Assembly: GCA_046331705.1 (NCBI GenBank)
Contig: JAXLQJ010000002.1
Location: 78,370-142,369, forward strand
DNA: 64,000 nt
Reading direction: 5' to 3'
Source: a bacterium
Lineage (GTDB): Bacteria > JADJOY01
Below, piece by piece: positions 8,563 through 15,810 of the stretch (the stretch's first letter is position 1; each line of letters begins with the position of its first letter). The translations under genes were made by a program, and so were the position numbers. The notes below the pieces were generated by a model, which was given only the letters and a program-made list of their open reading frames with translations, did no database searches and was not told the origin of the DNA.

Positions 8563-9744
8563 GTGGACTTCGAGCTCAGCCCGGAACAGCACGCGCTGCG
8601 GCGAGAGCTTCGGCGTTATTACCGCGAGCTCTTCACGCCCGAGCTGCGGGCGGCCCTCGACGCCGAATGGCACGAGGTGGGCGGTCCGGTGTTCCGCGAG
8701 GTGGTCGGACGCATGGGGGCGGACGGCTGGCTCGGCATCGGCTGGCCGCGCGAATACGGCGGCCAGGGCCGGACCGCGATCGAGCAGCTCATCTTCTGGG
8801 ACGAGACCTACCGGGCGCGCGCGCCGCTTCCCGTCATCTCGGTGAACACCGTCGGTCCCACGCTGATGCGCTACGGCACCGAGGACCAGAAGGCACGGCT
8901 GCTCCCGGGAATCCTGCGAGGCCAGCTCTTCTTCGCGATCGGCTACACCGAGCCCGGCGCGGGGACCGATCTCGCCTCACTCAAGACGCAAGCCCGCCGC
9001 GACGGTGACGAGTACGTCATCCAGGGACAGAAGGTCTTCACCACCCACGCGCACGACGCCGACTACGTGTGGCTGGCCGCCCGCACCGATCCCGAGGCGC
9101 CGAAGCACAAGGGCATCAGCATCATCCTGGTGCCCACCAGCACGCCCGGCTTCTCGGTGACTCCGACCTACACGCTCGGCGGCGAACGCACCAACACCAC
9201 GTACTTCGACGAGGTGCGCGTGCCGATCGCGAACCGGGTCGGCCCCGAGCACGGCGGCTGGCAGCTCATCACCGCGCAGCTCAATCACGAGCGCATCACG
9301 CTCGCAGCACCCGGCCTCGCCGATCGGTTGCTCGAAGAGGTCTGGCAATGGGCTCGGCGCACGCGCGGCCCCGACGGCGCGCCGATCGCCTCGGCGCCGT
9401 GGGTGGAGCTGTCGCTGGCGCGCGTCTACGCGAAGCTCGAGGCGCTCAAGCTCCTCAACTGGCGCTCCGCGTGGTCGATGTCGGAGGGCGTGCCGCGGAT
9501 GGCCGAGGCCTCCGCGCTCAAGGTGATGGGCACCGAGTTCTTCGGCGAGTGCTACCGGCTGCTGCTCGAGATCACCGGCGCCGCCGGCCTGGTTCCCCAA
9601 GGGGAGACCGGAGCGCTCTTCGGTGGCTTGCTGGAGCAGGCGTACCGGGGCGCCACCACGCTCACCTTCGGCGGTGGCGTGAACGAGGTGCAGCGCGATC
9701 TCATCGCGTGGTCGGGACTCGACCTGCCGAGGTCGCGAGGCTGA
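8563..9744 (+). CDS. acyl-CoA dehydrogenase
   Basis: VDFELSPEQHALRREL N-terminus typical of ACADs; C-terminal GGGVNEVQRDLIA; start moved from 8467 to in-frame GTG at 8563, because the 8467 start overlaps the operator palindrome. Confidence 0.8.
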   Translation: MDFELSPEQHALRRELRRYYRELFTPELRAALDAEWHEVGGPVFREVVGRMGADGWLGIGWPREYGGQGRTAIEQLIFWDETYRARAPLPVISVNTVGPTLMRYGTEDQKARLLPGILRGQLFFAIGYTEPGAGTDLASLKTQARRDGDEYVIQGQKVFTTHAHDADYVWLAARTDPEAPKHKGISIILVPTSTPGFSVTPTYTLGGERTNTTYFDEVRVPIANRVGPEHGGWQLITAQLNHERITLAAPGLADRLLEEVWQWARRTRGPDGAPIASAPWVELSLARVYAKLEALKLLNWRSAWSMSEGVPRMAEASALKVMGTEFFGECYRLLLEITGAAGLVPQGETGALFGGLLEQAYRGATTLTFGGGVNEVQRDLIAWSGLDLPRSRG

Positions 9745-9754
9745 CGAGGCAAAC

Positions 9755-10744
9755 ATGGCCGCCACCCCATCCGATCGCGAGCAGCTCGAGACGAGACTCA
9801 AGGGGTTCGCGGGCATCGCCGCGGGGCCGCCGGAGATCGCCCGCGACGTGGTGGAAGCCGCGACGATCCGCCAATGGTGCGATGCCCTCGACGATCGCAA
9901 CCCGATCTACACCGACCCCGCGGCCGCCGCCGCGTCGGTCCACGGCCGTGTGGTCGCTCCGCCCACCATGCTGCAGGCGTGGGTGCTGCCGGGCATCGAG
10001 ATGGCCAGCGGGGTCGCGCGCCCCGGCGACAAGCAGCGCGAGCTGCACGCGCTCCTCGACCGCCACGGCTACACCGGCGTCGTGGCCACCAATTGCCAGC
10101 AGGGCTACGACCGCTATCTGCACCTGGGCGAGCGCGTGACCGGCACCACCGTCATCGAGTCGATCTCGGGCGAGAAGGCGACCGCGCTCGGTATCGGCTA
10201 CTTCATCGACACGCGCACCACCTTCCGCGACGACGACGGCGAGCGCGTGGGATGGATGACGTTCCGCGTGCTCAAGTTCAAGCCCGCAGCGCCCCCTGCC
10301 GCGAGCGAGCGCGACGCCGCGGGCGCGCCCGTCAAGCCCCGGCGGCTGCGGCCCGCGCTGGGTCACGACAACGCGTGGTGGTGGGAAGGGATCCGCCGCG
10401 GCGAGCTGCTCATCCAGCGCTGCAAGAGCTGCGGCCACCTGCGCCATCCGCCGCGACCGATGTGCGGCGAGTGCCGTTCGCTCGAATGGGACGCGCTCTC
10501 CTCGAAGGGCCACGGCAGCGTCTACAGCTTCGTGGTGATGCACCACCCGCAGGTGCCCGGCTACGAGTACCCGCTCATCGTGGCCCTCGTCGAGCTCGAC
10601 GAAGGCACCCGGCTGATCGCGAACCTCACGGGCATCGAGCCCCGCGCCGTGCGCATCGGGCTGCGGGTCGCGCTCGCCATCGAAGCCGTCGATCCCGAGC
10701 TCAGCTTGCCGTTCTTCCACCCCGACACCACCGCACCGGGCTGA
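9755..10744 (+). CDS. MaoC-like hydratase fused to C-terminal DUF35 OB-fold/Zn-ribbon domain (ChsH2-like architecture)
   Basis: N-terminal hot-dog-like region; C-terminal CKSCGH...CGECRS zinc ribbon followed by an OB-fold-like segment; the same two-domain layout as mycobacterial ChsH2. Confidence 0.8.
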   Translation: MAATPSDREQLETRLKGFAGIAAGPPEIARDVVEAATIRQWCDALDDRNPIYTDPAAAAASVHGRVVAPPTMLQAWVLPGIEMASGVARPGDKQRELHALLDRHGYTGVVATNCQQGYDRYLHLGERVTGTTVIESISGEKATALGIGYFIDTRTTFRDDDGERVGWMTFRVLKFKPAAPPAASERDAAGAPVKPRRLRPALGHDNAWWWEGIRRGELLIQRCKSCGHLRHPPRPMCGECRSLEWDALSSKGHGSVYSFVVMHHPQVPGYEYPLIVALVELDEGTRLIANLTGIEPRAVRIGLRVALAIEAVDPELSLPFFHPDTTAPG

Positions 10745-10746
10745 CC

Positions 10747-13530: not shown

Positions 13531-13626
13531 GCGCGCCACCTCGGAGCAAGCACCCCGAGCCGCTCGGGATGGCGCCGCCAACCAGCCGCCAACCACGCCA
13601 ACGCGACAGCAAGAGGGAGAAACGTC

Positions 13627-14799
13627 ATGCCGGAAGCGGTGATCGTCGAAGCGGTGCGAACCCCCATCGCGCGCGGCAAGCGCAACGGCTGGCTGGCGGG
13701 CCTGCACCCCGCGGAATTGCTGGCCCGCGCACAGCTCGGCGTGCTCGAGCGCACCGGCGTCGAGCCCGACGACGTCGAGCAGATCGTGGGCGGCTGCGTG
13801 ACGCAGGCCGGCGAGCAAGCCTGCAACGTCACGCGGAACGCGTGGCTCTCGAGCGGCAAGCCCTTCACCGTGGGCGCGAGCACCGTGGATACCCAGTGCG
13901 GCTCGTCGCAGCAGGCCAACCACCTGGTGTCGGCGCTGGTGAGCGCGGGCGCGATCGAGGTGGGCATCGCGTGCGGCGTCGAGTCGATGAGCCGCGTGGG
14001 CCTGGGCGCCAACGTCATGAGCGGGCCCGGCTACTTCCAGCCGCTGGCGTGGCCGTGGGATTTGTCGCCGGACCAGTTCCAGGCGGCGGAGCGGATCGCA
14101 CGCAAGCGCGGGATCACGCGCTCCGAGGTCGACGCGTTCGCCGCGCACTCGCAAGCGAAGGCCGCCGCGGCTTGGGCCGAGGGCCGCTTCCAGCGCGAGG
14201 TGCTGCCGGTGACGGCACCGGTGATGGGCGACGACGGCGCACCCACCGGCGAGACCCGCGTCGTCGATCGCGACCAGGGCGTGCGCGCGACCACCGTCGA
14301 AGGGCTCGCGGCGTTGCGGCCGGTGATGGACGAGGGCGTCCACACCGCCGGCTCGAGCTCGCAGATCTCGGACGGCGCGGCGGCGGTGCTGTGGATGTCG
14401 GGCGAGCGCGCCAAGGCGCTCGGGCTGAGACCGCGGGCGCGGATTCGGGCGCAAGTGGTGGTCGGCTCCGACCCCTACTTCCTCCTCGACGGCCCCATCG
14501 ATGCGACACGACGAATTCTCGCCAAGGCGCGCATGAGCCTGGGCGACATCGACCTGGTGGAGATCAACGAGGCGTTCGCGTCCGTGGTGCTGTCGTGGGC
14601 GCGCGAGCTCGCTCCCGACATGAGCACGGTGAACGTGAACGGCGGCGCGATCGCCCTCGGCCACCCGGTCGGCGCCACGGGCGCGCGCCTGATCACCACC
14701 GCGCTCCACGAGCTCGAGCGCACCGGCAAGGGGACCGCGCTCGTCACGATGTGCTGCGGCGGCGCGATCGGCACGGCCACGATCCTCGAACGGATCTGA
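13627..14799 (+). CDS. acetyl-CoA C-acyltransferase (thiolase)
   Basis: Active-site region [11 protein letters not shown]; C-terminal [13 protein letters not shown]; AGAGGGAGA RBS. Confidence 0.85.
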
Positions 14800-14874
14800 G
14801 CTTCCGCGCCGACCAGCGGACCGCGTCGAACCACGCGAGGACCTCGACAACCCGAGCATGCGGAGGAGCTGGCG

Positions 14875-15810
14875 ATGACGACGAACGCGAGGCCGCTCGA
14901 AGGGAAGGTCGCGATCGTGACGGGCGCGGGACGTGGGCTGGGACGCGCCGAAGCGCTGGCGCTCGCCGCGCACGGCGCGCGCGTGGTGATCAACGACCTC
15001 GGCGTGGCGGGGGACGGCTCGGGCGCGGACGAGGGCCCCGCACGCGAGGTGGTGGCCGAGATCGAGCGCGCCGGTGGCGAGGCGATCGCCCATTTCGGCG
15101 ACGTCGCGCGCTGGGACGACGCGGCGGCGCTGGTGGCGCGGGCGGTCGACGTGTTCGGCGATCTGCACGTCCTCGTGAACAACGCCGGCTTCAGCCGCGA
15201 TCGCATGATCTTCAACATGTCGGAGCAGGATTGGGACTCGGTGATCCGCGTCCATCTCAAGGGCCATTTCTGCACCTCGCGATTCGCCACCGCGCATTGG
15301 AGGGAGCAGGCGAAGGTCGCGGGTGGCCCGGTCTACGGGCGCATCGTCAACACCGCGTCCGAGGCGTTCCTGTTCGGACCGGCCGGGCTGGCCAACTACG
15401 CCGCCGCGAAGTCGGGAATCGTCGGCCTCACCGTCGCCACCGCGCACGCGTGCGAGAAATACGGCGTGACGGCCAACGTGGTGTGCCCGCGGGCACGCAC
15501 CCGCATGAACAGCGAAGGGAGCCTCGGCGCGCTGTTCGCCAAGCCCGAGCAGGGATTCGACACCTACGACCCCGCCAACGTGGCGCCGCTGGTGGCGTAC
15601 CTCGCGTCGCCTGCCGCCGGGCGCATCAACGCCCACGTGTTCCTGGCGTGGGGAACGCAGGTCTGCTTGATCGGCGCGCCGCGCGTCCTCGAGACCTTCA
15701 CGAGCGACGCGCGCTGGACGGTCGACCGGCTCGACGAGCGCGTCGGCCGCTACCTGGAGACCCGCGATCCCGCCTCCACGGCGTTCGCCGCCGAGCTTCC
15801 CGGGATCTGA
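14875..15810 (+). CDS. SDR family oxidoreductase, MFE-2/Hsd4A-like hydroxyacyl-CoA dehydrogenase
   Basis: [13 protein letters not shown] cofactor motif, [14 protein letters not shown] segment, YAAAK catalytic motif; GGAGGAG RBS. Confidence 0.8.

Follow-up and report, generated by a model that had tools for sequence, protein, structure and literature searches.

We analyzed a 64,000-nucleotide stretch of bacterial DNA (GenBank assembly GCA_046331705.1, contig JAXLQJ010000002.1, positions 78,370 to 142,369 of the forward strand), here called the window, and in it a seven-gene cluster that a first-pass annotation had described as an igr-like operon for β-oxidation of steroid side chains. The window is ∼70% G+C, and raw lists of its open reading frames (ORFs) were crowded with shadow frames. 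Using third-position GC content and translations, seven plus-strand genes, designated G1 to G7, were placed at positions 8563–15810, and Pfam matches agreed with the domain content previously assigned to them. G1 (8563–9744, GTG start) is a full-length acyl-CoA dehydrogenase (ACAD) and the predicted catalytic (α) subunit of a heteromeric steroid acyl-CoA dehydrogenase. G2 (9755–10744) joins a MaoC-like domain (FAS1_DH_region) to the zf-ChsH2 and OB_ChsH2_C domains (DUF35) and is probably a non-catalytic MaoC subunit of the ChsH2/CasM type. G3 (10747–11883, 378 amino acids [aa]) is also a full ACAD, its middle domain falling below the Pfam cut-off, and would be the non-catalytic (β) subunit. 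G4 (11880–12308) matches MaoC and is a candidate catalytic hydratase subunit resembling ChsH1/CasO. G5 (12358–13530), an SCP-x-type thiolase-like protein (Thiolase_C_1), is predicted to be an Ltp2/CasP-like retro-aldolase releasing propionyl-CoA from a three-carbon (C3) side chain. G6 (13627–14799) is a canonical thiolase, putatively a FadA5-like steroid 3-ketoacyl-CoA thiolase, and G7 (14875–15810) belongs to the short-chain dehydrogenases/reductases (SDRs) and is probably a hydroxyacyl-CoA dehydrogenase of the ChsB1/Hsd4A-like (MFE-2) type.

The GTG start of G1 is backed by an aligned ATG and a 393-aa gene call in a related genome locus, L081. A longer ATG start at 8467 was rejected; it would place an operator described below (O2) within the gene, and relatives begin at the aligned GTG position. 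Gene junctions had been annotated as overlapping by 3–4 nt, which holds for G3/G4 (4 nt), the sole overlapping junction; the others are gaps of 10 nt (G1/G2), 2 nt (G2/G3), 49 nt (G4/G5), 96 nt (G5/G6) and 75 nt (G6/G7). The strong ribosome-binding sites also claimed were borne out in part: purine-rich stretches of this kind are clear before G4, G6 and G7, weaker before G1, G2 and G5, and poor before G3. Scans found no terminator-like or σ70-like sites within 12250–16000, and scans of the control region and operon for σ70 promoters and intrinsic terminators gave no signal exceeding that in shuffled sequence. Because such internal sites were absent and the next gene (15833–16705) is convergent, the genes plausibly make up one transcription unit that ends with G7. 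The identical seven-gene order recurs in ∼20 independent genome loci, so the arrangement is not due to chance.

The closest characterized relatives of G1 to G7 were sought by sequence search against all solved structures, with scores given in bits. G1 scored 450 against chain A of 4X28 (ChsE4) and 421 against Tcur3483 of Thermomonospora curvata, the next best generic enzyme reaching 159. G3 scored 273 against Tcur3481 and 213 against 4X28 chain D (ChsE5). Entry 4X28, with chains of 400 and 373 aa, is the Mycobacterium tuberculosis ChsE4–ChsE5 complex. The meaning of the Tcur3481/Tcur3483 structure was taken indirectly from a paper that labels the T. curvata ACAD as ChsE1E2 (PMC12502768). G3, at 378 aa, compares with 373 aa for ChsE5 and 364 aa for Tcur3481. 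Glu243 of G1, in the motif QLNHER, aligns with Glu247 of ChsE4, and this column holds Glu in 21 of 21 G1-type homologs. In G3-type proteins this column shows Ala 23 times out of 31 and at no point a conserved Glu, a pattern that fits the design of steroid ACADs with one active site per heterodimer. Judged by score, ChsE4/ChsE5 (FadE26/27) lie no farther from the pair than does the T. curvata enzyme labeled ChsE1E2. The earlier match to FadE28/FadE29 is accordingly narrowed to one with steroid-type ACAD pairs in general, FadE28/FadE29 being possible orthologs; the comparison set consisted of 4X28 and the T. curvata enzyme, no ChsE1–ChsE2 entry having been returned for G1 or G3.

The hydratase and aldolase assignments made from the first reading (ChsH2 with DUF35, ChsH1 and Ltp2) agree with the nearest solved relatives and, apart from one motif residue of G5 described below, with the active-site residues. 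The DUF35 part of G2 scored 147 bits against T. curvata ChsH2 (6OK1_B) and its MaoC part 130 bits against M. tuberculosis ChsH2 (4WNB_A). In its hydratase motif, DRNPIY, Tyr replaces the catalytic His, a substitution described for ChsH2 (PMC11321319). The zinc ribbon of G2 is of the C4 type (CksC-x10-CgeC), unlike the C3H1 ribbon of Shy. G4 found M. tuberculosis ChsH1 (4WNB_B) as its top match at 117 bits and retains the MaoC Asp/His dyad in the motif HDFTPVH. G5 scored 531 bits against T. curvata Ltp2 (TcLtp2; 6OK1_A), 187 against the next best and 146 against the C5-specific aldolase CtSal (9MYR), and it passes the NCBIfam model PRK07855 (633 bits, cut-off 469). Tyr293 and Tyr343 of G5 align with the catalytic Tyr294 and Tyr344 of TcLtp2, and both are kept in 86 of 86 homologs. 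Sal carries a YDCY motif and Gln at the second Tyr position; G5 has neither.

G6 scored 524 bits against M. tuberculosis FadA5 (4UBV), with 268 for the next best, and passes the NCBIfam equivalog NF005889, 'steroid 3-ketoacyl-CoA thiolase' (648 bits, cut-off 515). G7 scored 281 bits against the yeast MFE-2 dehydrogenase (2ET6) and 265 bits against 7LG9, which is ChsB1/Rv3502c, the hydroxyacyl-CoA dehydrogenase of the second cycle (PMC8204306). From these matches, G6 and G7 are predicted to add the second-cycle steps that shorten a C5 side chain to C3. The operon is in this respect broader than igr: the igr-like core seen earlier is there (ACAD pair, ChsH1/H2-type and Ltp2-type genes), and G6 and G7 extend beyond it. 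Gene by gene, the best characterized relative was a steroid side-chain enzyme (for G7, slightly behind the yeast MFE-2 dehydrogenase in score), by wide margins over generic paralogs for G1, G5 and G6, for example.

The first-pass annotation had also linked operators near the operon to steroids, and this link held: two perfect KstR-type sites precede the operon and a third precedes a gene pair of steroid-enzyme families. The KstR motif is the 14-bp palindromic TnnAACnnGTTnnA (PMC1995591). Operator O1 (8287–8300, TAGAACATGTTCTA) is a perfect TnnAACnnGTTnnA match 186 nt upstream of a divergent small gene that starts at 8101, and O2 (8477–8490, TAGAACGTGTTCTA) is likewise perfect, 73 nt before the start codon of G1. 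Both are also perfect TAGAACnnGTTCTA, for which the chance expectation was 0 (0 matches in 100 shuffles), and both form islands of identity in an otherwise diverged intergenic alignment with loci L081 and L083. A TnnAACnnGTTnnA site lies 29–180 nt upstream of the G1 homolog in 17 of 21 related loci, against a background of 0.045 sites per kb, and a KstR-type site is also found directly upstream of the homologous operons L072 and L074 (an actinobacterium and an acidimicrobium). O3 (26401–26414, TAGAACGCGTTTCA) is a KstR-like site 76 nt upstream of the 3β-hydroxysteroid dehydrogenase (3β-HSD)-like gene at 26490–27479; it falls in the same variant class as sites preceding G1 homologs, such as TAGAACGTGTTTCA in L005 and L027.

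Between O1 and O2 there is also a perfect palindrome, GTGACGGGCGTCAC (8429–8442), kept as GTGACGATCGTCAC in L081 and partly in L083, together with a conserved AT-rich block, ACGCAACGATGAAATATTTTT, at 8346–8366. These may be the site of a second regulator and a promoter element, respectively. No TetR_N match that could represent a KstR-family repressor was found among the window ORFs screened, and the gene may sit elsewhere on the contig; a crude, hand-made TetR helix-turn-helix pattern run over 1.26 Mb of related loci gave one candidate, in L025 only. Expression of the operon is probably under a KstR-like TetR repressor encoded outside the window.

From gene content, active-site residues and operators, we consider it likely that G1 to G7 are a single operon whose products carry out the final rounds of steroid side-chain removal on CoA thioesters. 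Steroid side-chain degradation had been predicted at the outset, and the alternative that the closest characterized homologs would prove generic did not materialize: they are of the steroid type, and both KstR-type operators and steroid-linked synteny were found. In the mechanism we propose, G1 and G3 would form an α2β2-type flavin dehydrogenase in which each heterodimer has a single active site, and would desaturate the steroid acyl-CoA side chain. With a C5 side chain, a hydratase from outside the operon (possibly the crotonase at 20869–21654) would act next, after which G7 and G6 would remove acetyl-CoA to leave the C3 pregnane-20-carboxyl-CoA. At the C3 stage G1/G3 would desaturate again, and G4, together with the ring-binding MaoC half of G2, would hydrate the 17-ene. 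G5 would dock onto G2 through the latter's DUF35 half and carry out retro-aldol cleavage to a 17-keto steroid and propionyl-CoA. For control, a KstR-like TetR protein is envisaged to occupy both TAGAACnnGTTCTA operators of the divergent promoter region until a steroid-CoA intermediate releases it.

Several observations weigh against this interpretation. The operon has no dedicated hydratase for the C5 cycle. G7 falls narrowly short of the NCBIfam cut-offs (PRK07792, 377 bits for a cut-off of 414; PRK07791, 354 for 373). None of kshA, kstD, hsa, a steroid-CoA ligase, an uptake system or kstR was found among the window ORFs screened, which leaves complete catabolism unproven; as far as the window genes go, full mineralization of steroids and mere trimming are both possible. 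Thauera terpenica 58Eu (L080, 8583–11170) carries a ChsH2/ChsH1/Ltp2-like trio at 40–60% identity. This species is a monoterpene degrader, and the trio could reflect either unrecognized steroid capacity or a terpenoid use of the enzyme system. Lastly, G5 reads YDAF where TcLtp2 reads YDHF, so that the His proposed as the oxyanion hole is absent. YDAF is carried by 79 of the 86 G5 homologs (Myxococcota and gammaproteobacterial metagenome-assembled genomes [MAGs]) and is for that reason best read as a lineage-wide variant rather than a lesion. In the same alignment, YDHF is limited to the copies from actinobacteria, Chloroflexi and Thauera and to second copies that some Myxococcota carry. The variant questions how essential the proposed oxyanion-hole His is.

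Among known systems, the nearest in layout is the cholate cluster of Rhodococcus jostii RHA1, in which CasLN is the dehydrogenase and CasOM the hydratase, CasM being ChsH2-like and CasO ChsH1-like (PMC12502768, PMC11321319). Read alphabetically, casL-M-N-O-P runs ACAD, ChsH2-like, ACAD, ChsH1-like, Ltp2-like, and the gene order found here is consequently not new. It does differ from that of igr, and a cytochrome P450 is missing, as first noted; what falls away is the novelty of the order. The operon shares with casLMNOP and its T. curvata counterpart the five functions and their interleaved order. For G1, G3, G5 and the DUF35 part of G2, T. curvata proteins rank first or nearly so among solved relatives, and the catalytic Tyr pair and the C4 zinc ribbon are common to both. 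It is unlike them in its deep-branching diderm host, the appended FadA5-like and ChsB1-like genes, the KstR-type operators, the YDAF motif and the neighboring flavoenzymes of the Δ24-steroid desaturase (Δ24-SD) type. With M. tuberculosis igr (cyp125-chsE1-chsE2-chsH1-chsH2-ltp2), which is part of the KstR regulon, it has in common a heteromeric ACAD, a heteromeric MaoC hydratase with a DUF35 subunit, an Ltp2 aldolase and the KstR motif TnnAACnnGTTnnA, whereas cyp125 is missing, the order is another one, and fadA5-like and chsB1-like genes are included; in M. tuberculosis, chsB1 at least lies far off by locus number (Rv3502c).

Modules resembling igr were already known from Gram-negative bacteria: ORF40–44 of Comamonas testosteroni TA441 (ChsH2, ChsE1, ChsH1, Ltp2, ChsE2) were proven by knock-out to be the igr equivalent that removes the C17 propionyl residue (PMC12502768). 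Comamonas TA441 and Stutzerimonas stutzeri Chol1 (Scd2AB/Sal2) build these enzymes from subunits on the same plan, the fusion of MaoC with DUF35 among them. The Comamonas module differs from the operon here in its order (H2-E1-H1-Ltp2-E2) and in lying inside a 120-kb steroid mega-cluster. The C5 cycle in Comamonas and Stutzerimonas is the Shy/Sal aldolase route, and G5 is far from Sal (146 versus 531 bits for TcLtp2). The FadA5-like and ChsB1-like genes point instead to the actinobacterial, thiolytic C5 cycle. What seems distinctive of the present locus is the presence of FadA5-like and ChsB1-like genes in the same operon, the apparent KstR-type control and the unusual host.

When genomes were scanned with G5, 80 loci came back. 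Those at the top, with 68–78% identity, belong to uncultured Myxococcota/"Deltaproteobacteria" MAGs that stem from several separate metagenome projects. Halieaceae/Cellvibrionales come next, along with a few Actinobacteria and Chloroflexi; across phyla, G5 is still ∼64% identical to the L072/L074 copies. About 20 of the 80 hold the full G1–G7 order, and some others have G2-G4-G5 only. Relatives of G2 were found at 98, 83, 73 and 70% identity. DnaJ of the host has relatives at 92, 82 and 78%, after which identity falls to ∼55% (Deltaproteobacteria, Thermodesulfobacteriota and Binatia). The genome bears Tol-Pal genes, as had been stated (TolQ, TolR, TolA, TolB, Pal and CpoB at 57.9–63.7 kb), and the host would be an uncultured, deep-branching diderm from a poorly sampled lineage, not confirmed as a myxobacterium.

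In related MAGs (L042, 13107–21007; L015, 13207–16450; L011, 18591–21161), extra KstR-like sites lie beside pairs of DUF35 and SCP-x-type thiolase-like genes. Such pairs are associated with branched sterol side chains (Ltp3/Ltp4). The same loci hold a Baeyer–Villiger-like flavin monooxygenase, a luciferase-like monooxygenase, a P450 and acyl-CoA ligases, so that these lineages seem to rely on oxygenases at the point where the lineage of the window has a flavoenzyme operon.

That operon runs divergently from G1, on the minus strand. It begins with genes for a 113-aa protein (7760–8101), which has no Pfam or NCBIfam match, and an 82-aa protein (7456–7704), which has a hydrophobic C-terminal segment and no family match. 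These are followed by FADox4 (5657–7384; 575 aa, 64 kDa), predicted to be the α-like subunit of a flavoenzyme of the Δ24-SD/limonene dehydrogenase type, and by its putative β-like partner FADox3 (3931–5559; 542 aa, 61 kDa). FADox2 (2153–3877, 574 aa) and FADox1 (445–2130, 561 aa; 38% identical to FADox3) are the first and second members of a second pair. Positions 1–444 encode the C-terminal part of a ∼144-aa helical protein cut by the window edge; in L081 and L083 its homolog sits between the fourth and a fifth flavoenzyme paralog, so the operon extends past the start of the window. In these two closest genomes the flavoenzyme block, there with the fifth paralog, adjoins the side-chain operon. 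The 113-aa and 82-aa genes head the flavoenzyme genes in L081, L083, L084 and the Binatia genome L085, and their products could help in assembly, anchor the enzymes to the membrane or take part in electron transfer. The 575-aa and 542-aa genes are always adjacent in the same four loci.

Phytoene desaturases proper (CrtI) carry GFxFDxGP at the position of the covalent-flavin motif, which makes the flavin-binding His of the family considered here family-specific. FADox4 has remote similarity to CrtO/CrtI and gave one marginal match only in a sequence search of the PDB. FADox1 to FADox4 were not accepted as 3-ketosteroid dehydrogenases of the KstD type, since they fit those models only in the dinucleotide-binding motif at the N terminus. 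The Sterolibacterium denitrificans Δ24-SD consists of adjacently encoded 63-kDa and 57-kDa subunits with 26% mutual identity, is related to the limonene dehydrogenase CtmAB of Castellaniella defragrans, and binds flavin mononucleotide covalently in each subunit through a His within G-F-L/R-X-N/S-T/L-H-A; uncharacterized homologs have been noted in Deltaproteobacteria, Halieaceae and Acidimicrobiales (PMC11061730). Residues 54–61 of FADox4, GFRGNTHA, match the consensus exactly, and the motif is kept in 115 of 120 homologs. Of this consensus, FADox3 (DFYHNTHA), FADox2 (GVRIFPHA) and FADox1 (CYSSNPHV) retain no more than the His or His-Ala. FADox4 and FADox3 are 27.6% identical. Judged from the published motif, size and pair identity, the FADox proteins likely belong to the Δ24-SD/CtmAB family. 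Adjacent genes, subunits of ∼60 kDa, mutual identity of 26–28% and the His motif are common to both systems. The divergent operon differs in having two pairs (with the fifth paralog in relatives) and two conserved small proteins, and in having no molybdenum C26 hydroxylase nearby.

FADox4 is 66–89% identical to proteins of Binatia, Chloroflexota and Dehalococcoidia, far above the ∼50–55% identity of the host DnaJ to the named phyla, and the flavoenzyme region (1–8100) has a G+C content of 0.64–0.67 compared with 0.68–0.73 elsewhere in the window. On these two grounds, the flavoenzyme module was likely gained by recent horizontal transfer across phyla. The Binatia genome has a module of 113-aa, 82-aa, 570-aa and 542-aa genes beside reductases of the old yellow enzyme (OYE)/FadH type. 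In a Dehalococcoidia genome, FADox homologs occur with a zinc-dependent alcohol dehydrogenase, an aldehyde:ferredoxin oxidoreductase, CoA transferases, a crotonase, SCP-x thiolase/DUF35 pairs and an ACAD, a layout that, by gene content, is the one expected for oxidation of a methyl group to an acid followed by β-oxidation.

Behind O3 lies a gene (26490–27479, plus strand) for an NAD-dependent dehydrogenase of the 3β-HSD/SdmB/HpnA family (Pfam 3Beta_HSD 79 bits, Epimerase 105 bits; NCBIfam HpnA 248 bits and SdmB 225 bits, both under the cut-off). Seven nucleotides after it, a plus-strand gene (27487–28248; Pfam Steroid_dh 171 bits) encodes a membrane protein of the 3-oxo-5α-steroid 4-dehydrogenase (SRD5A) family. 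This O3-preceded pair (26490–28248) is likely a ring-A module of the same regulon. A minus-strand ORF at 26412–27059 was rejected as a gene, being better explained as a shadow of the 3β-HSD-like gene. Downstream of G7 are the convergent SDR gene (15833–16705), a gene of the FA_hydroxylase/sterol-desaturase superfamily (16789–17484), a minus-strand gene for a 633-aa membrane-anchored protein without family match (17544–19445), a minus-strand OYE-domain flavoenzyme gene (19468–20802; BaiCD model 160 bits, N-terminal half only) and the crotonase gene (20869–21654; EchA19 model 199 bits, below the cut-off). In L083, SDR and crotonase genes directly follow the operon, so the three middle genes (16789–20802) are an insertion in the lineage of the window. 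Elsewhere in the window, an HrcA-GrpE-Hsp70-DnaJ heat-shock cluster occupies 47854–53012 on the minus strand; the score of its Hsp70-family ORF (48966–50789) against Pfam HSP70 is weak for its length (100 bits), and the product may be an atypical DnaK-like protein.

The substrate is probably a sterol rather than a bile acid, given the operator type, the flavoenzyme neighbors, the 3β-HSD-like/5α-reductase-like pair and the accessory genes of relatives. Were the operon instead a cholate-type module, equivalent to casLMNOP plus a thiolase and a dehydrogenase, the order ACAD-ChsH2-ACAD-ChsH1-Ltp2 would be just that of casL-M-N-O-P, and it would suit such a module that no P450 was found among the window ORFs screened. 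Both routes pass through the same C3-stage intermediates, so that the enzymes by themselves cannot tell them apart. The operators, however, fit the motif of KstR, the controller of the cholesterol regulon, and G1 is nearer to M. tuberculosis ChsE4 (450 bits) than to Tcur3483 (421 bits). The steroid member of the adjacent flavoenzyme family acts on isoprenoid sterol side chains, relatives hold a P450, ligases and DUF35/SCP-x thiolase pairs, and the 3β-HSD-like and 5α-reductase-like genes suit sterols or stanols. We thus regard a bile-acid module as rather unlikely.

Less likely again, though the trio in Thauera terpenica speaks for it, is that recruited steroid-like enzymes degrade a non-steroid alicyclic or isoprenoid acyl-CoA (from a terpenoid, a hopanoid side chain or similar). 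CtmAB, the best-known relative of the flavoenzymes, acts on limonene; the Dehalococcoidia FADox homologs keep company with the alcohol dehydrogenase, aldehyde:ferredoxin oxidoreductase, CoA transferase and β-oxidation genes listed above and with no recognizable steroid gene; and the 3β-HSD-like protein scores highest against the hopanoid-associated HpnA model. Against such a substrate stand the very high cross-phylum identity (∼64% for G5 to L072/L074) and the scores of 524–531 bits for G5 and G6, the position of G6 above a curated steroid-thiolase equivalog cut-off, the KstR operator common to actinobacterial homologous operons and the Steroid_dh-family gene behind the third operator. That the genes serve the bacterium in sterol remodeling or in its own biosynthesis of C19–C22 steroids, and not in carbon catabolism, is highly improbable, for although FA_hydroxylase, SdmB/HpnA-like and SRD5A-like proteins are encoded nearby, sterol-modifying enzymes occur in uncultured myxobacteria and ring-cleavage genes were not seen in the window, no squalene epoxidase, oxidosqualene cyclase or Cyp51 was found among the window ORFs screened, release of acetyl-CoA and propionyl-CoA is typical of catabolism, and KstR-type repression, where known, governs catabolic genes (PMC1995591).

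If the operon acts on sterols, as we favor, the question of how the side chain is activated turns to its divergent neighbor. No P450 having been found among the window ORFs screened, the flavoenzymes may stand in for the missing enzyme in a P450-free activation of the side chain. The FADox enzymes would desaturate the isoprenoid end of the sterol side chain, hydroxylate it with water, or both, and the product would feed the actinobacterial-type β-oxidation/aldolase operon. More broadly, the side-chain and flavoenzyme operons might constitute one KstR-controlled unit in which covalent flavoenzymes of the Δ24-SD/CtmAB type replace both the Cyp125 P450 found in aerobes and the molybdenum C25/C26 hydroxylases found in Sterolibacterium, the module being horizontally mobile and shared with Binatia and Chloroflexota. 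We put this forward tentatively, as a possibility with the chances against it.

Surveys place aerobic steroid catabolism in Actinobacteria and in Alpha-, Beta- and Gammaproteobacteria (PMC4810484, PMC5790920); neither mentions Deltaproteobacteria or Myxococcota, and our literature search found no paper linking Myxococcota to KstR or steroid degradation. An actinobacterial-type module with KstR operators in dozens of Myxococcota/"Deltaproteobacteria" MAGs widens the set of likely sterol consumers, and a putative KstR repressor–operator system would have moved across phyla along with its target genes. The divergent flavoenzyme operon offers a testable candidate route for activating sterol side chains without a P450 and is the part of the locus that could prove to be new biochemistry. 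If its proposed role is true, it would represent a third start of sterol side-chain degradation, independent of both oxygenases and molybdenum.

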